Shown piece after piece: positions 1 through 23,143 of a stretch of 57,956 nucleotides of DNA. The DNA is from Candidatus Aenigmatarchaeota archaeon (GTDB taxonomy: Archaea > Aenigmatarchaeota > Aenigmatarchaeia > GW2011-AR5). The stretch spans positions 21,434 through 79,389 of the forward strand of contig JAGVVY010000030.1 of the NCBI GenBank assembly GCA_018304585.1, given 5' to 3'. The notes under the pieces are model-generated. The model had not been told where the DNA came from and ran no database searches. It saw only the letters and a program-made list of their open reading frames with translations. How positions within the stretch are numbered: position 1 is the stretch's first letter; every line of letters starts with the position of its first letter. The position numbers and the translations under genes are program-made.

Positions 1-1557
1 CAGTTTCTTGTACACGCCGTTTTCAAGTATCATTATGCTATGATCCTTGATGGGCAGCGCCGGGGATAGCGCAGCAGTTATGGTAGCGGTGTCCCCTGCA
101 TAAGCATCAGCGCCGTATATCCCGAGTGAAACGTCGATACCGTTTACCTTCCCGTTGACCAAAGCAGGCGTAGATTCGGATGAAGCAACCGGAGCCGTGC
201 CTGCTTCAGAAGCGGGTGATTGAGGTGAAGCGGCCTCGTCGGCCGGTGTCGTCTTTGCCTGCAAAGTTATCGTGAAGTCTATCTCCTGCCCGTGTGTTGT
301 TATGACGCACATAGGATACGGTTCTTTTACCCATGTATTGCAGTCAGGAGTGACATCGGCATAAATCCGCGTTCCGTCCTCAATGACCGCATATGCTGTG
401 ACGCTGTATTCCGAATCGGCAGGGAGTAAAGAGTCTTTGCCGGTATAAGGAAGTTCCATATTATTAGTAAAACCGTCATTATCTAGCTTAAAGTGGGTAG
501 TGGCAGCGAAACCACCCTTGGAAACATCCTTCGGGAGTATCAAGGCCGTCACCTCGGTATATTTACCCCCGTTTGCGATGAGTTTTACCGTGCCGTGCAC
601 ATGCCCGACTGACCATACGACTTTAACTACATCGCTTGACTTCAGAGGTTTGTACTCATAGTAGCCTTTTCCAACATCAACGCGTTCTACAGCGGCCCAG
701 AAACTTCTGGATCCAGCAGAATCGGATTTCACCAAAAGTTCGCAGCTTTTGCTTTGGCATTGCTTCACAACCTGAGTGCACGAAGTAGATGTCCTTCTAA
801 CAGCGAAATCACATGTGGAATCAAAAGGCAAGCGGGGGCTACCCAGTTCTATATCTTCATATATCCGTATCATATATCCGTTCGGGAGATTTTCTGTTTC
901 ACTGTCAATGATAGCTACTGCGACCACCGGTACCTCCTCGTCGGCTGCGGCCTCGCTTTTCGCGGAAATTCCGAACGAGCGTATATCCGGAGCCGGAGGT
1001 TCGCTGGCTGAGAAGAGCTTCCCGAGGTAGCAAAGCGGATTCCAGCCGCATCCTTGCTCCGGTGTGGCAATGGGCGCTACCGCCTGTTCCTTTTCAGGAG
1101 TAGGTTGCAACACTTTTATTCGGGCAGTTGCCACAGTGCTTGACCCGTATGCATTCTTCGAGCCGGCATATATCGTGCATTCGGTTCCTGCCCGGCATTT
1201 GTCGGATGAAACATCCATTCTTTTGTTCTCGCTGCATTCGCGGGTAGTGGTTTTGGTCGTCACGCCTCTTTTGTCCTCTATAATGTAATAGTAGCAATCA
1301 ACGGCATTGTCACTGTCCTGAATATCGAGTGAGAATCCTTCCCTTTTTTCCAGATAGGGTGACAGGCTTCCGCTGATTGTGGTTATAGGCTTTGAACCTA
1401 AAGAAACGATATCCTTTATCGCCTGTTCCATTTCAGAAGTCGCTATAGGGCTCGTGACCGTCAGATCGTTGCTTCTGAGAATGACGTTGCTGTCTCTGTC
1501 AACGATGGTTGCGGTGTAGATGTTCTGCGTTGCCGAAGGCTCCGTGATATCCACGGC
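1..1557 (-). CDS. Surface-protein modules, open to the left window edge; probably the frameshifted continuation of 1461..4409
   Basis: Codon-by-codon hand translation of the minus strand from ~1557 to 1 has no stop (VDITEPSATQNIYTATIVDRDSNVILRSNDLTVTSPIATSEMEQAIKD...EGFSLDIQDSDNAVDCYYYIIEDKRG...VNGKVNGIDVSLGIYGADAYAGDTATITAALSPALPIKD...). It is missing from the ORF track because no stop lies in the window. It has no signal peptide of its own and reuses modules found in the neighbouring giant proteins. Confidence 0.6.
57..99. repeat. 43-bp exact repeat, copy 1 (partner 1556..1598)
   Basis: gcgccggggatagcgcagcagttatggtagcggtgtcccctgc is identical at both sites. About 70 bp further on is ~80-85% similar. 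Encodes GDTATITAALSPA on the minus strand. Confidence 0.9.
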
Positions 1558-4409
1558 GCCGGGGATAGCGCAGCAGTTATGGTAGCGGTGTCCCCTGCCG
1601 TGGCATCGGCAGCATATATGCCGAGCGAAACGTCAAGGCCGTTCACTTTTCCGGCGACCGGAGCAGGCGTCGCTATAGGAACGACTTTTACAGTCAGGAT
1701 AGCAATTTCGCTTTCCCTGCCAAGTCTTTGCGATTTGGCAAGCATGTAACAAGTGCCGCCTACCGGGCATTTCTTTGGATCTATCTTGACCGGTATGTTG
1801 CATTTCCTTGGCGTGAAGCTGACGCCTTCAAAAGAGCGTGCCGCCCCGGCACCGCCGGATCTTCCGCCGCCAAAGCCTTGGAATTCAGTTTCTGTCAATA
1901 TGGCATAAGAACATGCGTCTGCATTCCTGTCCTGTACGTTGATTTCGCCGTTCGGCGTCGTTTCAACCGTTGCGTCTATCTGGCCTTCTATAGTCGTGAC
2001 AGGAACATCGGCCGGAATCGTTGTCGTAGTAGCGGCAAAAGGAGTATAAGTGCATCCTCCTTCGTCAGGATCGGGGTCGCAGTAGCCTGTTCTGCATTCT
2101 GAATTGCTCTTGCATTCCTGGCCAAGTTCCTTAAGCGTCTGCGTCCAAGTCACGACGGACACATCCTTGCTCTGGGCGACTGTCGTGCCCACGGCGTTAA
2201 GAACGGCGATGTAAAATCTCCTCGTCGCCGGCGTTGGGGAATATATAATCGTAGTGCATGTCCTGCTTGAGCATTCCGTTATTGATTTGCAGTTCGCAGA
2301 ATTGGAAGCATCGCACGGCTTTTCTCCCGACACTATCTCGTATATTTTTACTTTGTAGCCGTCCGGAAGCTGCGGGGATGCCACTACTATTCCGTATACG
2401 GTTGCAGTCGCGCCTACCGTCAAAGATGAACGCAGAGGCGCGATCCCGACTGAAGTTATTTCTCCGTAACTTGTCGGAGGAACTGCTGCGGCTGGAACGG
2501 TGGTAGTCGTGCTGCTTTTCGGAACCGTGGTTGTCGTCGCCGATAGGGAATACGCCTTGCAGGCATTGCCTTCGCAACCGTAGGAGCATGTTTGCCAGTC
2601 GATGTTCCTGCAGTCTGCAAAACGATAAAGAAGCTTGTTGCCCTCGCAATAATAGCCCGCGCTGCACGTCGCCGGCGTTGATGCGGCGGTGACCGTGACG
2701 GTCTTTGACGCACCCATCACTCTCCCGGCGCTGTCGTGCACGTAAAGATAATAAATATAAGTTCCGGTGGAAGGCTGGGTTATTGTCCATGACGTCGAAC
2801 ATGAGGTCTGGGTTCCCTCGCAAGCATACGTCTTTGCCAACGGGCCGCTTAGCTCGAGCTTGGCAACGTCCTTATCGTCCGTTCCTATGCCGATGAACGT
2901 GAATGGCTTGCCCGCTTCCGCAGTGGAAGGCGCGACTATCGTTGCTTTCGGTGGCTGGTCAACTGTTGATGCCACGGTAGTCGTGATCTCGCACCTTAGG
3001 CCCGAGCCGCACTGCGCGTCGGACGTGCAGAACGCGCCCCATCCGCCGGTGGCTATGGTCGTCGTGGTCGCGGGTGTTGATGGGGCGACAGATGCACATA
3101 TGCTTGAGCTTGTGACCCACGCGATGCCATCAGTCGTGGCATCTTCTGAACGCACGGTGGAACGAGGTATTCCCGCGCTCAGGCATTTTTTCTCCGTTAC
3201 GGACCAGCCGCACAAGGAGTATATCACGCAGCCCGCGCACGTCGTCGCGCGCGCGGCGCATTCGGTGTTTCTGACAGTAACAGGACTTGGAACTGTTGTT
3301 GTCGTCGCGGGAGCTACCGCCGGGCACATGCTCTTGGACGTTATCCACTGGGAGCCGGATGTGCTGCGGTCTTCCGATCGGGTAGTTGAACGCGGCACGC
3401 CGGCGCTCAGGCATTTCTGCTGTGATGTCGACCAGCCGCACAGCATGGACTCGACGCAGCCGCTGCACGACGAAGCATATCCCCTGCACAGCGAATTCCT
3501 GGCGTTGATTTCGACATCGGAGCCGCAGGCGGGATCGTAGCATTCGTTTGAGGTAACGTAAGTTTCCCCGCATGCTTCGGAACATACGCCGTCGTTCTTG
3601 AAGCTTGAATATGCGGAAGCCTGGCATTTCCAGCAGCCCGGCACCCCTGCGATTGTGGTCGTGGTAGTCGTAGTCGCGGGCACAGAAGCCGAAACAGTTA
3701 TAGTTATAGAGGAAGATATACCGTTGCCGGAAGCATCATTGACAAATCCGAGTACTGTGGTCGTGCCTAGCGGGAATTCAAGCTGGCTGAATTCTACCCT
3801 GCAGTACGTCTGGATGCCTGTGCAATCGTAATCTTCAGAATGGCCGTTATATAGAATCGAGAGCCTGGCGACATCCTTGTCGTCATTCCCTACTATGGTG
3901 ATTGACCCCCTTTCGCCGACTTTCAGTTCTTTCTTGGCCGCGTACATGGATATCGTAGGATTGGCGCTGTCGGGTATCGTGGTTGATGTAGGGCTTGCCT
4001 TGCAGGTTCCTGTCGCGGCATCGCAACCGTATGTGCAATAAGTATCAATAGTTTGCGAACAATCGAAGTTCTTCTTGTAGCGGTAATATCCGTCTGGGCC
4101 GCACAGATATTGCGGGCTGCATGTCTTTGCGGCGGCATTGTCCTCCTTGACGCAATATTTGACGCCAGAACCAGTGCCCAGATCTCTGCATACCAGCGGT
4201 ATGACTTCTGCAGTCATAGACGGATAATAGCCGCACTCAGCATCGCCGTCGCATTTGTAAGCGTAGGGCTTTGTACACGCATCATCAACCTTTCCGTCGG
4301 CAACGTCTCCGCAGGGATCGACTGCTGCAAATGACGGGGAAAATATAATGGCAACCAGAAAGAATGAAGCGAGAACCGCGATTTGTAAAATTCGCCGAGG
4401 AAACCGCAT
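1461..4409 (-). CDS. Secreted Cys-rich, Thr-linker surface protein (982 aa as annotated)
   Basis: ATG start and N-terminal signal-like peptide MRFPRRILQIAVLASFFLVAIIFSPSFAA. Repeated Cys-knot-like modules (YYC.G..YYR...C.YGC...C), poly-Thr linkers (TTTTV/IP) and IGIGTDDKD Ig-like repeats shared with 14929..20526. The last ~30 aa look out of frame. Confidence 0.8.
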   Translation of the reverse strand: MRFPRRILQIAVLASFFLVAIIFSPSFAAVDPCGDVADGKVDDACTKPYAYKCDGDAECGYYPSMTAEVIPLVCRDLGTGSGVKYCVKEDNAAAKTCSPQYLCGPDGYYRYKKNFDCSQTIDTYCTYGCDAATGTCKASPTSTTIPDSANPTISMYAAKKELKVGERGSITIVGNDDKDVARLSILYNGHSEDYDCTGIQTYCRVEFSQLEFPLGTTTVLGFVNDASGNGISSSITITVSASVPATTTTTTTIAGVPGCWKCQASAYSSFKNDGVCSEACGETYVTSNECYDPACGSDVEINARNSLCRGYASSCSGCVESMLCGWSTSQQKCLSAGVPRSTTRSEDRSTSGSQWITSKSMCPAVAPATTTTVPSPVTVRNTECAARATTCAGCVIYSLCGWSVTEKKCLSAGIPRSTVRSEDATTDGIAWVTSSSICASVAPSTPATTTTIATGGWGAFCTSDAQCGSGLRCEITTTVASTVDQPPKATIVAPSTAEAGKPFTFIGIGTDDKDVAKLELSGPLAKTYACEGTQTSCSTSWTITQPSTGTYIYYLYVHDSAGRVMGASKTVTVTAASTPATCSAGYYCEGNKLLYRFADCRNIDWQTCSYGCEGNACKAYSLSATTTTVPKSSTTTTVPAAAVPPTSYGEITSVGIAPLRSSLTVGATATVYGIVVASPQLPDGYKVKIYEIVSGEKPCDASNSANCKSITECSSRTCTTIIYSPTPATRRFYIAVLNAVGTTVAQSKDVSVVTWTQTLKELGQECKSNSECRTGYCDPDPDEGGCTYTPFAATTTTIPADVPVTTIEGQIDATVETTPNGEINVQDRNADACSYAILTETEFQGFGGGRSGGAGAARSFEGVSFTPRKCNIPVKIDPKKCPVGGTCYMLAKSQRLGRESEIAILTVKVVPIATPAPVAGKVNGLDVSLGIYAADATAGDTATITAALSPAPWISRSLRQRRTSTPQPSLTETATSFSEATI
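1556..1598. repeat. 43-bp exact repeat, copy 2 (partner 57..99)
   Basis: Same 43-mer. The reading-frame break of the giant gene lies within a few nt of its low-coordinate edge (~1550-1558). Confidence 0.9.
2887..2985. repeat. 99-bp exact repeat, copy 1 (partner 20438..20536)
   Basis: atgccgatgaacgtgaatggcttgcccgcttccgcagtggaaggcgcgactatcgttgctttcggtggctggtcaactgttgatgccacggtagtcgtg, compared base by base. Flanks are only ~85-90% identical. Confidence 0.9.
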
Positions 4410-5498: not shown

Positions 5499-6037
5499 AT
5501 GCATAAACTAAAGTTAACGCTGTTGCAGCAGGAAATACTCCACTTCTTTTTCACAAACGCCGGAGAGTCATTCAACGCAAGGCAGTTAGCTATGTATTGG
5601 GCGTGAGCCAGCCGGCCGTCATGAAGGCCGCCTCCCAGAGCTTAAAAAGCGGGAATTCGTCCGTGTTCTCAGGGATCGATCATCAAAAAGATTTTCAATT
5701 GCATTGAATAGGGAAAATCCTCTTGTCATAGGAATGAAAAGAGGGGACAACATACGGTCAGTATATGAATCGGGTCTTGCCGAATTTCTCAGGGAACGGT
5801 TTCCGGGATGTGCAGTGATAGTATTCGGAAGCTTCGCTAAAGGCGAAGACACAAAAAATCGGACATTGATATAGCGGTGATAGGCAGCAAGGGCAAGGCG
5901 CTTGATTTGCAAGATTTTGAAAAAAACTGATGAAGGAAATAAGAATCAATTTTTACAGCTCCTTTAAGAAAATGCATAATGAACTTAAAGGAAGTATATT
6001 AGGAGGGCTTCTCCTCTCGGGATGGATAGAGCTATGA
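5499..6037 (+). pseudogene. Decayed HTH + minimal nucleotidyltransferase (MNT-type antitoxin-like) gene
   Basis: Joining four frames gives MHKLKLTLLQQEILHFFFTNAGESFNARQLA/LGVSQPAVMKAASQ/LKKREFVRVLRDRSSKRFSIALNRENPLVIGMKRGDNIRSVYESGLAEFLRERFPGCAVIVFGSFAKGEDTKN/SDIDIAVIGSKGKALDLQDFEK/LMKEIRINFYSS...SGWIEL*. Frame changes fall at ~5596, the A5 run 5644-5648, the A6 run 5853-5858 and the A7 run 5920-5926. GSxxxGE...DIDI is the NTase signature. Confidence 0.6.
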
Positions 6038-6456
6038 TGCCTTTGAGGCTATTCGGTGAATATTTGAGAGAGGGAACCGTGAGAAAGCAGTCGCCGGACA
6101 AGCTCAGGGCCAGATCGTTATTGCTGGAATCCAAGGATTCGTACAAAATACTTCTTTCTATAGCGGCCGAGATGGGAGTCAACGATGACAACGCAAATCA
6201 TGTAATAAAGAACGCATATGACATAGTGATGGAGCTTATCCGAGCAAAAATGCTTATGGACGGATTCGCCACCACAGGGAAAGGGGCGCATGAAGCGGAA
6301 GTGTCTTACATGACGATGATAGGAGTGAGCCTAAAGGATGTGGATTTTGCGAACGAAGTACGGTATTTCAGAAACGGCATTATGGGAAGAAATTTGACAA
6401 GGAATATGCTGGTAAAGTCCTCGGGTTTCTCGAAAGAATATATCCAACACTCGTAA
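6022..6456 (+). CDS. HEPN-domain-like protein, partner of the decayed NTase; C-terminus apparently frameshifted
   Basis: Helical ~140-aa protein. An ATG at 6034 overlaps the restored NTase stop (ctATGAtg). After ...VRYFRNGI the +1 frame reads YGKKFDKEYAGKVLGFLERIYPTLVKSIGIA*, more protein-like than the annotated tail. Confidence 0.5.
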   Translation: MDRAMMPLRLFGEYLREGTVRKQSPDKLRARSLLLESKDSYKILLSIAAEMGVNDDNANHVIKNAYDIVMELIRAKMLMDGFATTGKGAHEAEVSYMTMIGVSLKDVDFANEVRYFRNGIMGRNLTRNMLVKSSGFSKEYIQHS

Positions 6457-6646
6457 AAAGCATCGGCATCGCGTAGTCTGCGTGGCATCCATCAGGGCGC
6501 GTTATATAGATAATTACGAAAATTAGATGATATATAAGCAGTTATCTATTGCAAACTGTGGCGTGTTATATAATCCAAGTGGCATAGTTATCTATACATA
6601 TATCCTAGTGTAATCGTCCGATGTCCGAAGCTATGTGCACAAAAGC

Positions 6647-12299: not shown

Positions 12300-13388
12300 C
12301 TAAAACGTATATTCTATCACGGGCATGAATATCACAACCGTGACTGCTATCACTATCCAGAAAAATATAAAACCTATGATTATCGAGTCTGCAGCGAGCT
12401 TGCGGAACCCTTCCTTGTCCTGGCCGTTCTCTATGCCGTTGATGAACATCGCCAATACAAGGCAGGTTTCGAGAAGGTAAATGCCTACCACGAAGATGAA
12501 TTCAAAGGGCGTTGTGGACGTTTGGTAGAAGCTGCTGAGGAAAGGCACGCCTGGCAGATTCTGCGCCTGCTGGCCTATGCTCCCGAGTATCTTGAGTATC
12601 ATGAGCGTGAGGGTAATCACTATGCCGGTTATCATCGGCGACATGAAGAACGCCTGGAATTTCATGGAGCTCAACGGATCGTTAAGCTCGGCCCGTATGT
12701 CTTCCTGCGTGGCGTGCAGGTTCTTCAGGTACGTGGCAACGGACAGCATGGCGGCTGCGGCGTTCCTTGAACCCTTTACAGACGATTCGACTACCGTGGT
12801 CATGACGGACTTGATGAGCTTTGACGGGTAATACCTGATTGCCCCGTATCTTGCGTCAAAGAACGCCTGGCGGAACGTCATCCCGAGATTGCGTATGTTG
12901 TCCAGCGCCCTTATGAAGAAACCGCGGATTTTCAGGTTCTTGGTTGCGCGAACGCTCTGCTCAAGGGCTTTTTCTACGGGTATGCCGCTCGAAAGGTTAT
13001 TGCCCATGCGGAAAAGCGTGTCCCCGAATTCCTGCTCGACCTGCAGGGTTTTCTCCCTGACCTGCATTCCCTGGAATGTTGTGAGATAAAAATAAGCCGC
13101 TATTCCGGCAGCAACCGAGCCGGTAATAAGAAGCGCTGCTAAGATACTCTCAGTGCCTTCTGCCTGGAAGAAAAGAACGCCAAGAACTGCCATGACAAGG
13201 AACGTGCCCAAAGCAAATGGGAGCGCTTTCATCTCGCGGCCTTTATCTACAAAAAATCTGCCTGATTTGGGAACTTCCGGACTCTCCGTTATGTCTATTT
13301 TGCTGAACGTCGCCGGCCTCTTTTCTAGTATTCCTTTTATCATGAAGAAAAGTATGAGAAGGCCCGACGTCAAGGAAGACGGAGACAA
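12300..13388 (-). CDS. FlaJ/TadC-like type IV filament platform protein, C-terminal half
   Basis: Polytopic membrane protein with a cytoplasmic helical domain between TM blocks (T2SS-F-like architecture). The track start is TTG; the first ATG is at 13343. It overlaps the upstream half by 100-146 nt. Confidence 0.65.
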   Translation of the reverse strand: MSPSSLTSGLLILFFMIKGILEKRPATFSKIDITESPEVPKSGRFFVDKGREMKALPFALGTFLVMAVLGVLFFQAEGTESILAALLITGSVAAGIAAYFYLTTFQGMQVREKTLQVEQEFGDTLFRMGNNLSSGIPVEKALEQSVRATKNLKIRGFFIRALDNIRNLGMTFRQAFFDARYGAIRYYPSKLIKSVMTTVVESSVKGSRNAAAAMLSVATYLKNLHATQEDIRAELNDPLSSMKFQAFFMSPMITGIVITLTLMILKILGSIGQQAQNLPGVPFLSSFYQTSTTPFEFIFVVGIYLLETCLVLAMFINGIENGQDKEGFRKLAADSIIIGFIFFWIVIAVTVVIFMPVIEYTF

Positions 13389-14226
13389 GCGGGAACATGA
13401 CGAACCCCAGCAGCGGAAGTATTATGCCCATGGCGTGAAGGAACATGACGGGCGTATTCAAATCCTGAGTGAAATGCTGCGCCGACTCACGGTTGCCTGC
13501 AAGTATGACCTGCACCGCCTGGTCAAGCATCGTCAGCCTGCGTTCCTCGGTCTGCGACAGCGAGCCTATGAGAAGGTCGATTGATTCCAAAAACTCGCGG
13601 TTTTCTTTCCACTTCGTGCTGTACGCCAGCAGCCCGTCCTGCATGCTGACAAAATTCCCCACTTCCACGTCCCACATCAGCTTTCTTAGTTCATACACAA
13701 GCTTGCCTGACAGGTTCTCGGCCGAGAACTCCATCGCGCCTTCGAGGTTTGGGTTGTTCCTCATGTAGATTGCCATGTACAGTATCATGTTCACTATCTC
13801 CGAGCCGGTCTCTATCTCGTACATCTTCCTGAGATGGAAAGGATAATTGTAAAGATAGACAAGGAACGGCAGGAAAACAAGAAGCGCCATTGCCGCCTGC
13901 CCGGGCGGAAGCCCCGGATAGCCGAGGAAATTGGAAACGGCCAGCGCAAGCAGCGGAAGGGATACGACGACGCCAAGAAGCACCGTCAGCGACGCCACGC
14001 CTTCCGGCGTTGCCTTCAGGTGCGAAAAGTCGATGGCATCCTGCATTTTTTCCTTTTCTTTTCCGCTCATGCTTATCGTCAGCAACCTGAGCGAAAAACG
14101 GCAGGCCTTTTCATAGATGGAGACGGGGAGCGTCTTGAGCTTCTCCTCTTCCTTGAATATCTTGTATTCCCGCGACTCTATCTTTCCCGGGACGGCAAGA
14201 GACCGCCTGTTGTCGCGCAAGGCCAT
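13243..14226 (-). CDS. FlaJ/TadC-like platform protein, N-terminal half
   Basis: Same architecture. The last ~45 aa (SHTFLHDKRNTRKEAGDVQQNRHNGESGSSQIRQIFCR) are non-membrane-like and overlap the next ORF. Confidence 0.65.
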   Translation of the reverse strand: MALRDNRRSLAVPGKIESREYKIFKEEEKLKTLPVSIYEKACRFSLRLLTISMSGKEKEKMQDAIDFSHLKATPEGVASLTVLLGVVVSLPLLALAVSNFLGYPGLPPGQAAMALLVFLPFLVYLYNYPFHLRKMYEIETGSEIVNMILYMAIYMRNNPNLEGAMEFSAENLSGKLVYELRKLMWDVEVGNFVSMQDGLLAYSTKWKENREFLESIDLLIGSLSQTEERRLTMLDQAVQVILAGNRESAQHFTQDLNTPVMFLHAMGIILPLLGFVMFPLVSVFLDVGPSHTFLHDKRNTRKEAGDVQQNRHNGESGSSQIRQIFCR

Positions 14227-14928: not shown

Positions 14929-17900
14929 TCATGCCACCTTCATCGGCGCAGGGCTGGCCGGGGAGTAGGGTATATTGCCGTTGATGATGCTTGAGATCTT
15001 GGCCGCATCTGTGGTGCCCCACCAGTTGTTGGTGGCGAGAACATCCTGACTTGCGGGATCTGTAGATACTGCATACATGCACCCGTTGCAATATATGTCG
15101 TTTTCCATTATATATATGGAACTGCTTTTCCCGGCTATATTGACGCCGGTTCTCTTTGTACGGATGACGTTGTTCTGTATCACAGTATCTTTGGTGTCTT
15201 CAGTGAACACGTCCGTATTAGCGTTCTCTTCCAAGACGTTGTCGATAATATGATTTCCGGTGGATTCCGACGTTTCATAATCCCTTTCTGCCATGCGTTC
15301 CCAAAAGTTTATACCGTTCCTGTTGTTATTGGTTATGGTGTTTTTTTCTACGCTCATGGTTGAGGGCCTTTCCGCGGCTATGCCGTCGTTCCTGTTGCCG
15401 GATATTGCATTGCCGATGACTTCCGTGTTTATGGTGTAGCTCAGCCAGAAACCGTAGTTGCTGTCCGATGCGATATTATTATAGAATTTATTCCCGGAGG
15501 CAAATACGGCCTCGAAGGCGTTGTGGGGGCTGCCGGTTGCGTCGTTGAACGCCACATAATTGTCCTTGGAGTCGCCACGTCTTCCGTTAAGGAAGAATCC
15601 ATCGCCTCCATAACTCATGTCATTGCTTGTTATCCTGTTGTTGGAGGAGGATGCCACAAGAAGCACGGCCGCGGAGTCGCAACCGCACCCGTATGTTGTC
15701 GAGTCTATGCCTGCAGCCCGGCATAGGTCGCTGGGTGCGTCCTTGCTGCATGCCCTGTTGGCGTAGCTGAAGTCGTTGCGGTCTATCTCGTTGTTGTTGG
15801 AGCCGTATAGTTTTATTCCATAGCCGGTGTTATGGTCGGCTTCATTTTTGGATACCCTGACGTCATTCACGTTCAGGAAGCTTATGCCGTCCTGCTGGTT
15901 GCGCAGGATGCTGTTTTCTATTGCACCGCCCTTGACATCGCTGAAAAATATTCCCCCGCCCCACGGCTCTTTCTTATGTATGTCCAGAAAGACGTCATGG
16001 TCTTCGACTCTGTAATTGTTTGATATGTCGCTGTCTGTTATCTTCACGTTTGAAGATTTTTCGGCAAAGACGCCGATGAAGTACTTGGACACCTTGCAAT
16101 TCTTCACTTCCACGTTGTTGGCATTTATACGAATACCATATCCCTGATAATTCCCTTCCAGTGCCGCCCCGTTGCAATCGAGCACGGTATCATCGGAATT
16201 TATTATGATGCCCGGAATTGACTGGGCCGTTGCCCTGTATACTTTGTCGCATAACTTGACGTTGCCGTCTATTATGGTAAGCCCGGCAACCTCTTGGCAT
16301 CCTTCTTCATATATAGGCTGGGTCGGAAGATGCGTCGGCGCATTGATTATGCAGGAAAGGAACTTATTATTATTCTGAGCATTCCATGCCGAGCATGTGT
16401 TTATATCGTATGCGCTTCCCGGCCGGGCGTAACAGCAGTTTATCACGTTGACGATATGGCGTTTTGACAGATCGTTGTATTCGGCAATATTTCCCGAGCC
16501 CATTACGCTTGTTTTTGAGGAGCGGAAGCCGCCGTATCCACCGCAACCGTAATAGCAGGCGGTTCCTGCCTGGCAAGACGTTGCAAAATTGACGTTGGCA
16601 ACATACGGGAATTCGCACGCGCCCTTACCGCCGTTCCCATCCGGGAGCCAGATGCAAGAATACGTGTCTCGACCATACGAGTATTTCTTATCTTCGCATG
16701 ATGACTTATCGGTTATTTTGAAGCATTCGGGGCCTGCTCCGAATGCCGGCGCGCCGCACCATTTCGGGCAGCCGGCAACATCGCAGTTGGGCGCAGCCAC
16801 GGCCGACATTCTGGGCGGCGCGGCAAAGTACTCGTCCGCAAGGTCTGCAAATGTGTGGCCGAACTCGTGTAACGTAGCCCCCTTTGTGTCGGCAGTCGAA
16901 GAATAGCGGGTGATCTGGGTTCCGAATTTTATTCCTCCACTGTATCCGGCTGCATAGCCAAGTCCATTATTGTCCAGCACTATTGTCACATCCCTGAAAG
17001 GACATTTTTCGGCAGAAAGAGACTTAAAGTATTCGAGGCATTGCCACCCATTTTGTGTGATATCGCAATCCTTCCGAACGTCCGCCGGCGCATACCAGAC
17101 GTTGAATTTGTCGCGGTAGGTGCTGTAGGGTTCCTTCGAGAGAAGGTAGTTTATGTGAGTGGGCAAAACAACATCCACGAATTTATATGTTTCTTCCGGT
17201 GCATAATTATTGGACATTACTACTATGTCAATGTTGTCGTCTGAATCACCTCTGTTATCCACCGGTATGCATGCGTCTGTATAGGTGACTGCAAAGCTTG
17301 CCGAATCTGCGACGATTACGTCATTGAACGCCAAGTCTATGGCGTATTCGCCTTCCGCGAAATTTGCCGAATCTATTTTCGCCCCATAAATTCCGTCATT
17401 GGGGGCGCGGTCACCGTGACTCCCATCGTCGTAAAGCGGAATGGTTATGACGCCCGAGGTTTCTGAGTCGGCCGCCAGGGAAGCCCGTTTTATTTGCGCC
17501 GTTGTGCGAAGGCCGGGTTGTGCAGTGGCAACGATGGAAAATTGTGTCCCGGAGGGTCCTGCAGTCGGAGTGATTGATATTTTCAAATCAATGCCTGTGT
17601 TTTTCACGGGTACTGAAGGGAATGCAAGCACATACATGGCGCCAGGACTACTAGCGAGGAACCCGAAATCGTTTATGACTATCACGCCGTAGTCATCGAT
17701 TATTTTCTCGCCGTATTTTACGCCCTCTGCAGGAGGGACAATTTCATCGGTTCCATCGATGGTCATTATGTATTGGCCGTTTGCGTTTCTGACACTGAAT
17801 GTGTTTTTGCCGAGGGAATCCGCCACTTCCTCCAGGTTTTGTCCTTGAGGCAACTCAACGGTAATATGTCTGGCTAGGTACCGTGCCGTTTTTCCCGGCT

Positions 17901-20526
17901 GGGAAACTCCCGTATTTATCCATATAGTATCATATTTCGACATAAATTCAGGTAGGGTGAAAGGGACATCTATCTTGCAGGGCAATATGGCAGGGCAATC
18001 GAAAGATTGAGAATAAATATCAGGGTCATGGTATATGAACACATACGCTTTGACAGGACCGGCTTCTTGGCCCTGAACTTCGATAATGGCATGATATGGA
18101 GATCCCTTGAAAACTGGCGGTTTTACGGTCATTGAGGCGATGCCAAAAGCGTCGCGGATTTCTCGTTCGAGAACATTGTTCGTCTCGTCACGCTCCTCGA
18201 TTTTGTTATCTACGTCAATTTCCGCGGTGATAACGTCTCCTTGGCTGGTGCCCCTTGATAGGTCAAAACGATATACGTCTTCATATCGACTGACGGTCGC
18301 CATCTGGACATTGCCATTTACGCTGGCGGAAAGTAAGGTAGAAAAGCTGGAAAATGCTTTACTTATAATCATATCCGGCATGTCCTTTGGGTCTGCCTTG
18401 AAAGGCTCGATGGAAGTCCTAGAAACAACAAATGCGCGCCTTATGTTATCCGAGGCGAATTCGTTGCGCAGGCTTCCCTCAAACACGTATGTACCGGGAG
18501 CCAGAGAACCCGGCACAATTTCGCCGATGAGAAGAGTGCCTTCTTCCGCATTCCCGCCGTTAGAAAGGAGAATTGTTTTGATGATATTTTCGCCTGAATA
18601 AACAGAAACCGAACGATAAGCGCCCGTGTCACCGGTCGCGATTACTCTTATTTGATAGACGTTTTCGTTCTCTTTGCCAGGCCATGGTATGATTTCAATG
18701 GATTTGATTCTTGGAGGGGAATTAGCGGGATGTGCCTGTGTTTTGGGGGGTTCTGCAGGTATTATCGTTGTGGTCAATGTCTTCATGGTCGTCGTAGTCG
18801 ACAACCTGCTTACTTGTAGCGTCGGGCGGCCGGTATAGCCTAAGTCTGTGATCAGGATCCTAAGTCCCTTCCATTCGGTCGGCATATCTTTTGGTATGGT
18901 TTTACTGTCGCCGTTTATATCCACGGTATATCCCGTTGACATGATTTCAGTGATTTTTATGGACATGCCTTCAAACTCGAACAGCTGCCCGACGGATAAG
19001 GCGGTCGTCGTGCTTCCTGTCGTCGCCGCGGCAAACTTAACAGTAACGTAATCCGTATTGGAATTTCCGGCCTTGTCGGTGGCCTTTGCCAAGTATGTGG
19101 ACGTTGCGGGAGCGTCCCGCGTCACTGTCCATGAAGTCCCGCAGGAAACCGAGCCGCCGCATGAATACGATTGCCATCCCGAAGCTTTGTCAACATTGTA
19201 GAATTCTATCGTGTTGATGCCGCCAGTGTCGCTGGATACGACGGCGATACTCACACTTTCCCCGGCTTTCGGCTCTGTTGCGGAGGGCGTAATAGAAATA
19301 GTGGGCTTTGTCGTGTCCGTGGTTGGCGGCAGAGTAGTGGTCGTTGAAACGGAAGACGATATTACGTTCACAAGCATCGTCGCCGGCACGCTCTCCTTGC
19401 CTGTCCCATCCCGCGATTTCGCAATTACTGTGCACTTGCTGCCTGCAGGGCACTCCTCCCTGCTTGTGGAAAGAGCATTGCAAGCGCGCTCCTTGTTCAA
19501 TGCAGTCGTGCCCTTCGTGCTGCTCACGATCGTGTAGAAGCACTTCACGGCGTTGTAATCCTGAATGTTTAATGAGAATCCTTCTGTTTTCGTTACAGTC
19601 GGCGCGGACAGTGCGCCTTCGATCAGGGTTCTTGGTTCGCCGCCTGCGGCAATAGTTGTTGTGGTTGCCACGCCTCTGGATATAGTAGTAGTCGTCGCCG
19701 GCTTGAAGGCGCACTCGCCCTTGTCAAGGTCGCAATAACCTGAAGCGCATTGCGCATCCGCATAGCACGCGTCGCCAAGGTTTCCTTTCGGTGATGCGAT
19801 AGTTGTACTGCCGGTCACTGTCACGGTTTTTGACGCCGTCGCCATTTGCCCGATGCTGTCATAAGCATAAACGTAGTAAGTGTAAGTTCCGGGCGAAGTT
19901 TCAGTTATCGCCCATGTGTTGGAGCAGGACGTCTTTACGCCCTCGCAATTATAAGTTTTCCACGATCCTTGGTAGTAAGCTTCAATCCTGTAAACGTCCT
20001 TGTCGTCCGTTCCTATGCCGATGAGCATTATGGGGCTTCCGGTAATTGCGCTGCTCGTTGATACGATGCTTGCAGTAGGCGCCTTGTCAGCGGCCGCTAT
20101 CGTCGTTGTCGTCGTATAGACGCAGTTCCCGCCGTCCTTGTCAACGATGGCGCACTTGCCTGTGAGGCATTGCGAATCAGAAGTGCAGAAATCGCCGAAA
20201 CTGCCCTTGGGAATTGTTGTAGTCGTTGTTACGGCTGTGATCGTGATAGTCTTTGACGTAGTCGCCATTTTTCCGGCATTGTCGTAAACGTAGACGTAGT
20301 AAGTGTACGTTCCTGCGTTTGATTCGGTGATGGACCATGACGTTGAGCAGGAAGCCTGCGTTCCGTCGCAAGTGTAAGCCTTCCATGATCCCTGGTAATA
20401 AGCCTCTATTCGAAATATATCCTTGTCGTCCGTGCCAATGCCGATGAACGTGAATGGCTTGCCCGCTTCCGCAGTGGAAGGCGCGACTATCGTTGCTTTC
20501 GGTGGCTGGTCAACTGTTGATGCCAC
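14929..20526 (-). CDS. Giant multidomain surface protein: Ig-like repeats, CARDB-like domain, M64-like zinc metalloprotease, parallel beta-helix
   Basis: 1865 aa. The track start is GTG and there is no signal peptide. Three IGIGTDDKD...YYQGSW..Y.C.G repeats; ...DETNNV (CARDB-like); DIVVMSNNY...ATLHEFGHTFADLADEY (HEFGH at 16855..16869); C-terminal repeats such as NNVEVKNCKVS, NTGYGIKLYGSNNNEIDRNDFS and SNYGFWLSYT. Confidence 0.85.
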   Translation of the reverse strand: MASTVDQPPKATIVAPSTAEAGKPFTFIGIGTDDKDIFRIEAYYQGSWKAYTCDGTQASCSTSWSITESNAGTYTYYVYVYDNAGKMATTSKTITITAVTTTTTIPKGSFGDFCTSDSQCLTGKCAIVDKDGGNCVYTTTTTIAAADKAPTASIVSTSSAITGSPIMLIGIGTDDKDVYRIEAYYQGSWKTYNCEGVKTSCSNTWAITETSPGTYTYYVYAYDSIGQMATASKTVTVTGSTTIASPKGNLGDACYADAQCASGYCDLDKGECAFKPATTTTISRGVATTTTIAAGGEPRTLIEGALSAPTVTKTEGFSLNIQDYNAVKCFYTIVSSTKGTTALNKERACNALSTSREECPAGSKCTVIAKSRDGTGKESVPATMLVNVISSSVSTTTTLPPTTDTTKPTISITPSATEPKAGESVSIAVVSSDTGGINTIEFYNVDKASGWQSYSCGGSVSCGTSWTVTRDAPATSTYLAKATDKAGNSNTDYVTVKFAAATTGSTTTALSVGQLFEFEGMSIKITEIMSTGYTVDINGDSKTIPKDMPTEWKGLRILITDLGYTGRPTLQVSRLSTTTTMKTLTTTIIPAEPPKTQAHPANSPPRIKSIEIIPWPGKENENVYQIRVIATGDTGAYRSVSVYSGENIIKTILLSNGGNAEEGTLLIGEIVPGSLAPGTYVFEGSLRNEFASDNIRRAFVVSRTSIEPFKADPKDMPDMIISKAFSSFSTLLSASVNGNVQMATVSRYEDVYRFDLSRGTSQGDVITAEIDVDNKIEERDETNNVLEREIRDAFGIASMTVKPPVFKGSPYHAIIEVQGQEAGPVKAYVFIYHDPDIYSQSFDCPAILPCKIDVPFTLPEFMSKYDTIWINTGVSQPGKTARYLARHITVELPQGQNLEEVADSLGKNTFSVRNANGQYIMTIDGTDEIVPPAEGVKYGEKIIDDYGVIVINDFGFLASSPGAMYVLAFPSVPVKNTGIDLKISITPTAGPSGTQFSIVATAQPGLRTTAQIKRASLAADSETSGVITIPLYDDGSHGDRAPNDGIYGAKIDSANFAEGEYAIDLAFNDVIVADSASFAVTYTDACIPVDNRGDSDDNIDIVVMSNNYAPEETYKFVDVVLPTHINYLLSKEPYSTYRDKFNVWYAPADVRKDCDITQNGWQCLEYFKSLSAEKCPFRDVTIVLDNNGLGYAAGYSGGIKFGTQITRYSSTADTKGATLHEFGHTFADLADEYFAAPPRMSAVAAPNCDVAGCPKWCGAPAFGAGPECFKITDKSSCEDKKYSYGRDTYSCIWLPDGNGGKGACEFPYVANVNFATSCQAGTACYYGCGGYGGFRSSKTSVMGSGNIAEYNDLSKRHIVNVINCCYARPGSAYDINTCSAWNAQNNNKFLSCIINAPTHLPTQPIYEEGCQEVAGLTIIDGNVKLCDKVYRATAQSIPGIIINSDDTVLDCNGAALEGNYQGYGIRINANNVEVKNCKVSKYFIGVFAEKSSNVKITDSDISNNYRVEDHDVFLDIHKKEPWGGGIFFSDVKGGAIENSILRNQQDGISFLNVNDVRVSKNEADHNTGYGIKLYGSNNNEIDRNDFSYANRACSKDAPSDLCRAAGIDSTTYGCGCDSAAVLLVASSSNNRITSNDMSYGGDGFFLNGRRGDSKDNYVAFNDATGSPHNAFEAVFASGNKFYNNIASDSNYGFWLSYTINTEVIGNAISGNRNDGIAAERPSTMSVEKNTITNNNRNGINFWERMAERDYETSESTGNHIIDNVLEENANTDVFTEDTKDTVIQNNVIRTKRTGVNIAGKSSSIYIMENDIYCNGCMYAVSTDPASQDVLATNNWWGTTDAAKISSIINGNIPYSPASPAPMKVA
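16855..16869 (-). other. HEFGH zinc-binding motif of the giant protein
   Basis: The minus strand reads cac gag ttc ggc cac, followed by TFADLADEY as in the peptidase M64 consensus HExGH...DEY. Confidence 0.7.
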
Positions 20527-20536
20527 GGTAGTCGTG
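20438..20536. repeat. 99-bp exact repeat, copy 2 (partner 2887..2985)
   Basis: Identical 99-mer. Immediately after it this copy carries 16 extra nt (gccctcgcggtcgact, 20537..20552) relative to the paralog, then similarity resumes. Confidence 0.9.
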
Positions 20537-20884
20537 GCCCTCGCGGTCGACTATCTCGCACCTTAGGCCGGAGCCGCATTGCGCGTCTGACGTGCAGAAG
20601 CCCCCGTAACCGCTTCTTATCGTGGTTGTGGTTGTTGGTATTGTGTTGCAGTCGTTTGTTGCTGTGTTGCATCCGTAAGCGCACGTTTTCGCAAACACGG
20701 ACGATCCGTCAATCAGGCGGTAATAGCGGTCGTTGCCCGAGCAGTAGTATCCCGAAGACGTGACCATCCCTGTCGGATTGGCGAAATCCGAGATAGCGTC
20801 TTTTATACCGTCAAGAAACGATGCGGAAGAGATTGACGGGGTAATAAATAATATTAGAAGGATTATATGGGATAAAAATCGCAT
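20510..20884 (-). CDS. Signal peptide plus Cys-rich N-terminal fragment; probably the detached 5' end of 14929..20526
   Basis: MRFLSHIILLILFITPSISSASF...YYCSGNDRYYR...CAYGCNTATNDC...FCTSDAQCGSGLRCEIVDREG, then out-of-frame HDYRGINS*. The paralog reads straight through (RCEITTTVASTVDQPPKA...). Confidence 0.7.
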   Translation of the reverse strand: MRFLSHIILLILFITPSISSASFLDGIKDAISDFANPTGMVTSSGYYCSGNDRYYRLIDGSSVFAKTCAYGCNTATNDCNTIPTTTTTIRSGYGGFCTSDAQCGSGLRCEIVDREGHDYRGINS

Positions 20885-20911: not shown

Positions 20912-23143
20912 TCATTTCCCGTTGTCAAGCCACGCCTTCCAGCGCTGGAAAATAACGGCGCTGTCCATGCCGCCGGTCTCCTCCATCACTTCCCTGCTTA
21001 TGATGTGGAACATGGAGTTGGATTTCATCACGAACTCGGCTTCCATGGCGTCCGGCCTCCTGTTTTTCAGGGCAAAGTCCGTGAGATGTTGCAGCACGTT
21101 GCCCCTGAGCAGTATGTTCTCCCAGACAAGGTCCCATCTCCCTTTCCATTCGCGGGTACGGGAAGCGATTTCGTTCAATATGGCGCTTTCCCCAAGGACA
21201 AGCGTCTCCGTTGCCTTGAGCGTGTCGTCTTTTGCCGAGTATTCAAGAAGCTTGACGAAACCTCCTTCTTCCTGCGGATCGGCCTTCCAGTGTTTCCGGA
21301 CTTCCGTAAGTTCGGTCAGGCGGCGGAAGCTCGAGAGCCCGTCGGGAGAGCGAAGCGCATTGGCGATAAGGACGAAGTCCGTTGCCTTGAAGCTTGTCGG
21401 AGGAACACCCAAATCGTTGACTACACGGTCAAACACGCCGTAGGCGGAGTCTCCGTGGATTGTTCCGGCTACTGTGTTCGCCAAGGCGCCTATACGCATG
21501 GCTTCGTAAAGCGCTTTCGCTTCCCCGCTTCTGACTTCGCCTATGATAAGGGAGGAATCCCCAAGCCGCAACGCAGTTCTCAATCCCTCTTCGGCGGGCA
21601 TTTCAGTTTCAACTTGCGTAATAACAGAACGCGATTTCAGCCGTTCTATATTATAACCCAGTTCCCTGAGCTGCTCTATCGGCAGTTCCAAAGTATCTTC
21701 AAGCGTAATAATTCTTATTTTTGGCATTATCTGGACCATTATCGCGCCGAGGAGGCTGGTTTTTCCGGAGCCTCTCGTTCCGCCGACAAGCATGGTCCTC
21801 GCGCCGTCTACAAGGAACCATATCAGCCCGGCGGAGAATGAATCGAGCATCTTTGTGCTGATGAACAGAGGGAACGTCCACGGCTTCAGCCTGTGCCGGC
21901 GGAAGGCAAATCCCAAGCCCTCGGGCGACAGGCTCCTTGTTATGGCCGTCACCCTTGCCCGCGCCTGGGGCAGTTCTATTTCCGTGTCAAGCACGGAATT
22001 CGCCTCATCAAGCGGGCGGCCCGAGTGCAAACGGAAGCGCGTGGCCCAGGTTTCCGCGTCCTCCATGCTTGGGACCATGTTGGTTTCGCATTCGCCGTAA
22101 ATCCCGTGAACGATATAGATGGGCGAGGAGCCGATGGGCGAATTTACCGCCATGTCCTGCACGCGCTCGTCCTCAAGGAGCAATTCAAGAACGCCGAGAC
22201 CGGCAGTATAGCGCACGAGTATGTCCGCAAGCCTGTCCAAGGAGTCTTCTGCCACAGGTATCTTGTCGTTTCTTGATATATCCCTCAGAAGATCCGAGCT
22301 TATACGCTTCATGTTCTCCCTTACCGTTTCAGGTTCGGTAAGCTCAATGTCCCTCGGCTCATGCTTGCCGATGTACTGCCTCGCCTTGTCAAGAATAGTG
22401 TATTCATTTTCATCAAGCTTGAATTCAGGCGGAATGAAATGATAGAGCCTTCTTACTTTTCCGGGAATATTGTATATCTGTATATCCGTGTCGCCCAGCG
22501 AATAGCGCTCGAGCAGTTCGGCATTCGCAGGCGGCGTCGCCACGTACCGCGTATACATGAAGTTCGGCCGGATGCTCGGATGGAATATCTGCCTGTAGAG
22601 GGAGCGGTCTTTGTGCTCATGGAGGCGGTTGCGTACAAGCTGTATCATGCGGCAGCTCTCAAGCGCGGTAGTCATGGGAGTAAGCGAATTCGCGATATAA
22701 TGTTCGGCGCATTTCCTTTTCGTTTCGTCCCCGTCCTTTTCTATAGCCGTATTGGCGTGCCTTATCTCCCTTACAAGCCATTTGTAAGCCTCTATGGGGT
22801 CGTATTTTATCTGCGAGAAAACTTTGGTGAGGAAATCATAGCGCTCCTGCGATTCATGCTCGCATTCCGGCAGCACCATGTTGCGTATCGTTATTACTCT
22901 GTCGCGTATTATTTTTTCTATTGCGTTGGCGATTTCAAGAAGCATCCTGCTTTCGTTAAAGTCATATTCGTGCTCGCGCCGCTCAACGAAGACGATCCTG
23001 ACAAGCCTCTTTATCTCGAGCAGCTTGTCTATTGCTACGGACATCACGACGTCGTAGTCCTCTATGCTCGGGCCGTAGATGCTGCCCATGCAGTTTATCC
23101 TCACCCTCTGCGACTCCGGGTCGTATTCGGACTCAAAAACCAT
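20912..23143 (-). CDS. Type IV filament/secretion ATPase (FlaI/PilB/GspE-VirB11 superfamily), 743 aa with a long N-terminal extension
   Basis: Walker A GGTRGSGKTSLLGA; LEDT.EL; Asp/His-box-like LRLGDSSLIIGEVRSGEA..L.EAMR.G...TIHG. Confidence 0.9.
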   Translation of the reverse strand: MVFESEYDPESQRVRINCMGSIYGPSIEDYDVVMSVAIDKLLEIKRLVRIVFVERREHEYDFNESRMLLEIANAIEKIIRDRVITIRNMVLPECEHESQERYDFLTKVFSQIKYDPIEAYKWLVREIRHANTAIEKDGDETKRKCAEHYIANSLTPMTTALESCRMIQLVRNRLHEHKDRSLYRQIFHPSIRPNFMYTRYVATPPANAELLERYSLGDTDIQIYNIPGKVRRLYHFIPPEFKLDENEYTILDKARQYIGKHEPRDIELTEPETVRENMKRISSDLLRDISRNDKIPVAEDSLDRLADILVRYTAGLGVLELLLEDERVQDMAVNSPIGSSPIYIVHGIYGECETNMVPSMEDAETWATRFRLHSGRPLDEANSVLDTEIELPQARARVTAITRSLSPEGLGFAFRRHRLKPWTFPLFISTKMLDSFSAGLIWFLVDGARTMLVGGTRGSGKTSLLGAIMVQIMPKIRIITLEDTLELPIEQLRELGYNIERLKSRSVITQVETEMPAEEGLRTALRLGDSSLIIGEVRSGEAKALYEAMRIGALANTVAGTIHGDSAYGVFDRVVNDLGVPPTSFKATDFVLIANALRSPDGLSSFRRLTELTEVRKHWKADPQEEGGFVKLLEYSAKDDTLKATETLVLGESAILNEIASRTREWKGRWDLVWENILLRGNVLQHLTDFALKNRRPDAMEAEFVMKSNSMFHIISREVMEETGGMDSAVIFQRWKAWLDNGK

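Follow-up and report, generated by a model that had tools for sequence, protein, structure and literature searches.

A split gene for a giant surface protein in an Aenigmatarchaeota genome is very probably an artefact of de Bruijn assembly

Does an archaeon carry a broken gene for a giant surface protein, or is the gene broken only in its deposited sequence? The question arises from a window of 57,956 nucleotides (nt), i.e., the whole stretch of DNA analysed here, which covers positions 21,434 to 79,389 of the forward strand of contig JAGVVY010000030.1 in assembly GCA_018304585.1, a metagenome-assembled genome (MAG) of Candidatus Aenigmatarchaeota archaeon. Two paralogous genes of this window, called gene 1 and gene 2, share an identical tract of 99 nt. 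Gene 2, the putative gene of a giant surface protease/adhesin, is split at the edge of this tract into open reading frames (ORFs) of 124 and 1865 amino acids (aa). As judged from sequence comparisons, the split is very probably an assembly or scaffolding artefact of a short-read MAG built with a de Bruijn assembler at k = 100.

The split and its association with the 99-nt tract are confirmed as observations. A first reading of the letters alone, hereafter the sequence-only reading, had reported that the two copies of the tract are identical, and they do agree at 99/99 positions as a maximal exact match. The same reading had described the two ORFs as out of frame with each other and the paralog as uninterrupted. 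Indeed, the minus-strand frames of the 124-aa and 1865-aa ORFs are offset by +1, and the paralog reads RCEITTTVASTVDQPPKATIV. Immunoglobulin-like (Ig-like) domains, a Peptidase_M64-like HExxH region and NosD/right-handed beta-helix repeats are found in the 1865-aa ORF. The 124-aa product was seen in a protein search solely on the window's own contig.

Elsewhere, gene 2 is found in one piece. Two proteins of 2054 aa, P0011 on a 90.7-kb JGI/IMG and ENA contig and P0012 on a 77.6-kb ENA contig, share their first 116 residues with the N-terminus of the 124-aa ORF, continue with GNCVYKSVTTTTTPKVPWGGTCYIDSQCATGLICDDDELVCIAGTRSTT and then with TTTVASTVDQPPKATIV..., and include the whole 1865-aa ORF. 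Thus, the 116 codons lying upstream of the junction in the window equal residues 1-116 of both intact proteins, and the 1865-aa ORF equals residues 169-2054 of P0011, minus 21 aa missing at 18357/18358. The DNA of the 77.6-kb contig carrying P0012, named L017, was assembled independently from a Rifle aquifer sample. It is 100.000% identical to the window over about 24 kb (Table 1), but precisely at three junctions of the window it has 146, 63 and 35 nt more, and its gene 2 is a single 2054-aa ORF. Where the sequence-only reading had looked to long reads for a continuous in-frame sequence that would reveal an assembly artefact, such a sequence was thus encountered, in independent assemblies rather than in long reads.

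Further assemblies document the same loss. A third one, L018 (JGI 3300002529), is 100% identical to window positions 10995-2986 and then continues with ...gagatAGTGGACCGCGAGGGCGGGAATTGC..., the start of the 162 nt that gene 1 lacks in the window. P0019 (1753 aa), encoded on the same 90.7-kb contig as P0011, is intact gene 1 and displays the residues lost at 2985/2986 and at 1555/1556. The missing segment is also present in the protein-level read assemblies P0001, P0014 and P0015 (run SRR3989344), as well as in P0006 and P0018. At the repeat, some protein-level read assemblies leave gene 2 and carry on in gene 1, and the repeat therefore confuses assemblers. Sequence identical to this population occurs in the ENA record ANAN16-1_SAMN03842431 and in the runs SRR3989344 and SRR3989338, which places the population in the Rifle aquifer. 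Compared across these sources, gene 2 of the real genome is one ORF of 2054 aa, predicted to encode a secreted multidomain protein.

A genome of the same genus, G004 (Candidatus Aenigmarchaeota archaeon in its NCBI annotation), holds syntenic orthologs of both paralogs, and both are in one frame at this site (...RCEIVDREGGNCVYK...ICDEDELICIVGTRSTTTT...DQPPKATIV), with the shared pattern ...FCT.DA.C.SGLRCEIVDREGGNCVYK..TTTT..KGTWGSTCTSDSQC.SGLICDEDELICIVGTRSTTTT...DQPPKATIVAPSTA.... This bears on the idea, raised by the sequence-only reading, that the two products are conserved separate genes, namely one for a small Cys-rich protein that is secreted and one for a large protease without a leader. 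Both frames are open and the second has a GTG start, but this GTG is internal to a conserved Thr linker and the last 7 residues of the 124-aa ORF are translated in the wrong frame. With the junction continuous in one frame in G004 and a single 2054-aa ORF in the sister assemblies, the idea is refuted in practice, and its probability is negligible. As a separate observation, the gene 2 ortholog of G004 (L013 18386-18395, G004:C3) is itself split into 520 aa and 1355 aa by a 1-nt length difference at ...ITEIMPTRMPWI (stop) / VDINGDSK..., which may be real or an error. By eye and from the translation only, an apparent intein-like insertion with a homing-endonuclease-like segment was also noted in the neighbouring MCM-like helicase ORF of G004 (L013 1-2841, G004:C3).

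What distinguishes the two paralogs next to the 99-nt tract had been described as 16 extra nt in gene 2. These nucleotides are present at 20537-20552 (minus sense agtcgaccgcgagggc) and have no counterpart in the window paralog. When they are skipped, gene 2 and the paralog regain ~85% identity across the next 61 nt, and on the opposite side of the tract 15/18 of the next nt match before ungapped similarity ends. The 16 nt encode ...IVDREG and are found in both same-genus paralogs as well as in the intact copies of gene 2. They are therefore native, and an insertion in gene 2 is ruled out. Instead, sequence is missing from both paralogs of the window: gene 2 is 146 nt and gene 1 162 nt too short, and each thus lacks ~50 codons, among them that of the fourth Cys in a conserved 4-Cys module. 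The 146 nt encode GNCVYKSVTTTTTPKVPWGGTCYIDSQCATGLICDDDELVCIAGTRST and part of the next Thr codon, and the frame shifts because 146 = 3x48+2. At the junction, the short form reads gagggc/cacgactacc (20537/20536), the intact form gagggcGGGAATTGCG.... A homopolymer sequencing error at gggcc was also considered and rejected, since the gap is 146 nt and not 1.

If the deposited sequence were correct, the two frames might still be joined by programmed +1 ribosomal frameshifting where they overlap for 38 nt (tcg acc gcg agg gcc acg act acc gtg...). A +1 shift just past ...REG gives ...CEIVDREGTTTVASTVDQ... and an open frame of ~1990 aa. Its product would nevertheless be devoid of the fourth Cys and of the whole second module, which are present in every other copy, and the relatives and sister assemblies are in frame across the site and need no shift. 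No conserved slippery or stall motif was noticed in the overlap, no systematic motif search having been made. As the assembler signature described below by itself accounts for the junction, such a frameshift has hardly any probability left.

The 99-nt tract is only the end of a longer identity. The true repeat between the paralogs measures at least 257 nt: in the 101 nt where DNA of both genes is available the match is exact, and in the rest the proteins are identical. It spans ...IVDREG and the second Cys-rich module up to ...FIGIG, and the 99-nt tract is its last 99 nt. Both window paralogs resume at one identical base, the first of the 99-nt tract, with 5' breakpoints lying 16 nt apart. That two deletions should have arisen independently in nature and yet share a breakpoint to the exact base is implausible.

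The length of the tract recurs across the genome. All maximal exact repeats of at least 30 nt were listed in the 825-kb assembly of 33 contigs: 13 measure exactly 99 nt, one measures 100 nt and none is longer. Contig termini hold nine of these 13 99-nt repeats, which pair contig ends with each other, and the other four pairs are internal, including the pair shared by gene 1 and gene 2. A de Bruijn graph at k = 100 leaves overlaps of k-1 = 99 nt at contig ends, and the pile-up at 99 nt is this k-1 overlap. Another internal pair has one copy at C4 21333-21431, flush with an "NN" scaffold gap lying two bases to the left of the window, and the other flush with the frame break of gene 1 at 1555/1556. 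In all internal pairs with flanking homology (both C4 pairs, the C30 pair and the 100-nt C21 pair), the tract stands on the plus strand, left of the break. As this holds whatever the direction of the gene, it is in keeping with a computational procedure that works in one direction, trimming the start of the next contig and then appending it. On contig C30, the internal 99-nt pair is found at 3251-3349 and 6492-6590, and frames of 462 aa and 366 aa meet at the right edge of the first copy (3349/3350); this frame break is probably a further split gene made by a scaffold join. The Rifle aquifer metagenomes were obtained from 150-bp reads assembled by IDBA-UD with --maxk 100, and for scaffolding errors that project either put in Ns or "repaired" the site by reassembling it locally with Velvet (PMC5079060).

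The k-1 signature, the NN gap that shares it, the lost segments and the intact copies are all observed, whereas the pipeline step that dropped the bases is inferred. The repeat of at least 257 nt common to both genes would break the contigs because it exceeds both k and the read length. A contig leaving the repeat would begin with the last k-1 = 99 nt of it, so that both paralogs would carry an identical 99-nt tract ending at the first paralog-specific base. Flanking contigs would then have been rejoined by read pairs with a misestimated gap and no Ns, so that gene 2 would have lost 146 nt and gene 1 162 nt. The true distance from one 99-nt overhang to the other, +59 nt, would have been estimated as negative and the start of the appended contig trimmed, and at the single join with an estimate of +2, "NN" would have been written for a real 23 nt. 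Alternatively, the losses may have been introduced by a later local "repair". The false 124-aa and 1865-aa ORFs would arise because the loss in gene 2 is out of frame, while that in gene 1 happens to be in frame.

The junction is thus a scaffold join that skips the middle of the repeat and not a chimera between paralogs. The sequence-only reading had envisaged a chimeric join through paralogous repeats. It was right about an assembly fault, given the k-1 length and the intact copies with 100% identical flanks, but not about the chimera: both flanks of each junction come from the correct paralog, and synteny with L017 and G004 is kept. The case resembles other mis-scaffolded de Bruijn assemblies (IDBA-UD, maxk 100) in its exact repeats capped at 99 nt and mostly located at contig termini, in internal copies that abut joins (one with Ns), in the loss of the repeat interior and in the integrity of independent assemblies. 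It differs from them by a join without Ns and a trimmed upstream end, and it therefore mimics a clean deletion.

A real deletion or non-allelic recombination may also be invoked, cutting the repeat in both paralogs and turning gene 2 into a pseudogene or into a reversible, paralog-templated on/off switch. The junction does exist in the deposited sequence, the two genes share a long exact repeat able to support gene conversion, and the same-genus ortholog is also split, by its 1-nt indel elsewhere, so the gene may tolerate disruption. However, a tract of exactly k-1 with 12 siblings in the assembly would then be a coincidence. Homologous conversion copies donor junctions faithfully and would not give breakpoints that coincide at one side but differ by 16 nt at the other. 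Gene conversion would also place both ends of the tract in homologous sequence and keep the donor indels, whereas one end is here a non-homologous junction. Furthermore, comparison of the window with L017 found no microhomology at 20536/20537, 18357/18358 or 13357/13358, assemblies in which the gene is intact match the flanks at 100.000% identity, and the truncated product is unique to this contig. Two more gaps destroying a frame or a domain lie within 7 kb, and the NN gap bears the same signature. This explanation is consequently considered very unlikely, and the recent gene-conversion or recombination patch proposed by the sequence-only reading does not agree with the breakpoints.

An inactivated protein or an on/off switch, the consequence drawn from that patch, finds no better support, as the intact state is the sole state seen elsewhere. 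Like phase-variable surface-protein genes, gene 2 is a large surface gene with a paralog carrying an identical tract and with an out-of-frame junction. Unlike them, it displays no simple-sequence tract and no population evidence of both states; no homopolymer or short tandem repeat occurs at 20520-20560, and the OFF product is known from this contig only. A short junction that is real in a subpopulation, where an illegitimate deletion in the 257-nt repeat would silence gene 2 and conversion from the paralog would restore it, is regarded as highly improbable. If true, a DPANN episymbiont would switch a surface protein on and off by recombination.

Three points weigh against the artefact explanation. 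First, the upstream contig ends without the expected 99 nt of the repeat, and the mechanics of the join are thus a reconstruction. Secondly, the 63-nt and 35-nt gaps (18358 and 13358) are exactly 5000 nt apart and adjoin no 99-nt repeat; chunk-wise processing, low-coverage contig ends or coincidence may be their source. Thirdly, an origin of this MAG in the IDBA-UD study is presumed from its 100% identity to a re-assembly of a study sample and from the 99-nt signature. A tblastn search of the whole bin found no stray contig with the missing segment. Overall, the split of gene 2 is almost certainly not a real feature.

Table 1. Coordinates in the window of the ORFs, tracts and junctions discussed, with the blocks aligned to the independent assembly L017
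Feature	Position	Strand	Remarks
5' part of gene 2 (giant surface protease/adhesin)	20537..20884	-	start codon, signal-peptide-like N-terminus, Cys-rich module to ...RCEIVDREG
124-aa ORF	20510..20884	-	signal-peptide-like N-terminus; overruns to spurious stop at 20510
1865-aa ORF (rest of gene 2, annotated as separate)	14929..20526	-	starts at internal GTG
99-nt tract, gene 2 copy	20438..20536	-	identical to 2887-2985
99-nt tract, partner copy in paralog gene 1 (982-aa ORF 1461..4409)	2887..2985	-	
Probable faulty join in gene 2	20536..20537	-	146 nt lost (L017 10349-10494), frame shifted
Second lost segment in gene 2	18357..18358	-	63 nt, in frame; encodes IEFIKTSKDRYQALVTVENTG, the CARDB domain start
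Third lost segment (vs L017)	13357..13358	-	35 nt; splits T2SSF/FlaJ-like platform gene
Gene 1 join	2985/2986	-	162 nt lost, in frame, 54 aa
Second 99-nt tract in the window, gene 1	1457..1555	-	identical to C4 21333-21431
Gene 1 join	1555/1556	-	~79 nt (LPIKDHSIMILENGVYKKLCDQTSFCS, 27 residues) lost; frame broken
T2SSE-family type IV filament ATPase gene, flanking gene 2	20912..23143		
Block aligned to L017	30884-20537		100.000% identity, 10,348 nt
Block aligned to L017	20537-18358		99.8% identity, 4 mismatches, 2,180 nt
Block aligned to L017	18357-13358		100.000% identity, 5,000 nt
Block aligned to L017	13357-4964		100.000% identity, 8,394 nt

The other losses affect neighbouring sequences in different ways (Table 1). 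The 63-nt segment of gene 2 is kept in the same-genus ortholog, and CARDB is matched by Pfam in the intact P0011 and not in the 1865-aa ORF of the window. The T2SSF/FlaJ-like platform gene is whole in L017 and G004 (653 aa), whereas the window holds it as 13243..14226 (327 aa) and 12300..13388 (362 aa). Gene 1 (window 1-4409 plus C4 20843-21433) is one gene of 1753 aa with breaks at 2985/2986, at 1555/1556 and at the NN gap, all three coinciding with intragenic or inter-paralog repeats. The NN gap conceals ~23 nt of gene 1, and according to P0019 the residues hidden behind it are CDQTSFCS. Between 4964 and 10995, the window is 100% identical to both L017 and L018, and the frame disruptions located there, e.g., in an MNT-HEPN-like pair (5499-6470), are therefore not peculiar to this assembly.

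The intact 2054-aa protein combines a signal peptide, Cys-rich modules joined by Thr linkers, Ig-like domains (Big_13/PKD-like), CARDB, an M64-like region with an HEFGH motif and C-terminal NosD/right-handed beta-helix repeats. Its profile matches are Big_13, CARDB, the N-terminal part of Peptidase_M64 and NosD/Beta_helix. The Peptidase_M64 match reaches 34.4 bits against a cut-off of 26, covers profile positions 1-58/302 only and precedes the HEFGH motif; the protein may thus be a protease. Besides the T2SSE-family gene on one side, gene 2 is followed on the other by a gene for a small protein of 219 aa and then by the T2SSF-family platform gene. The 2054-aa protein is plausibly a filament-associated adhesin/protease of a DPANN archaeon. 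It resembles the giant secreted surface proteins of DPANN type IV filament loci by the same domain set and the T2SSE/T2SSF neighbours, and is unlike them in that its M64 match is restricted to those 58 profile positions and its protease activity is putative.

For annotation, this locus calls for caution. At least three genes of one surface-filament locus, encoding the 2054-aa protease/adhesin, its 1753-aa paralog and the FlaJ/T2SSF-like platform, look split or pseudogenic in the deposited MAG merely from bases lost at scaffold joins. Claims of gene decay, phase variation or frameshift in this genome should first be compared with the 99-nt k-1 signature and the sister assemblies. A pile-up of exact repeats at one length also offers a cheap, read-free screen for further genomes that this pipeline has produced. 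What is left as biology is ordinary yet of use: a type IV filament locus of a DPANN archaeon contains an intact gene for a giant, predicted secreted multidomain protein.

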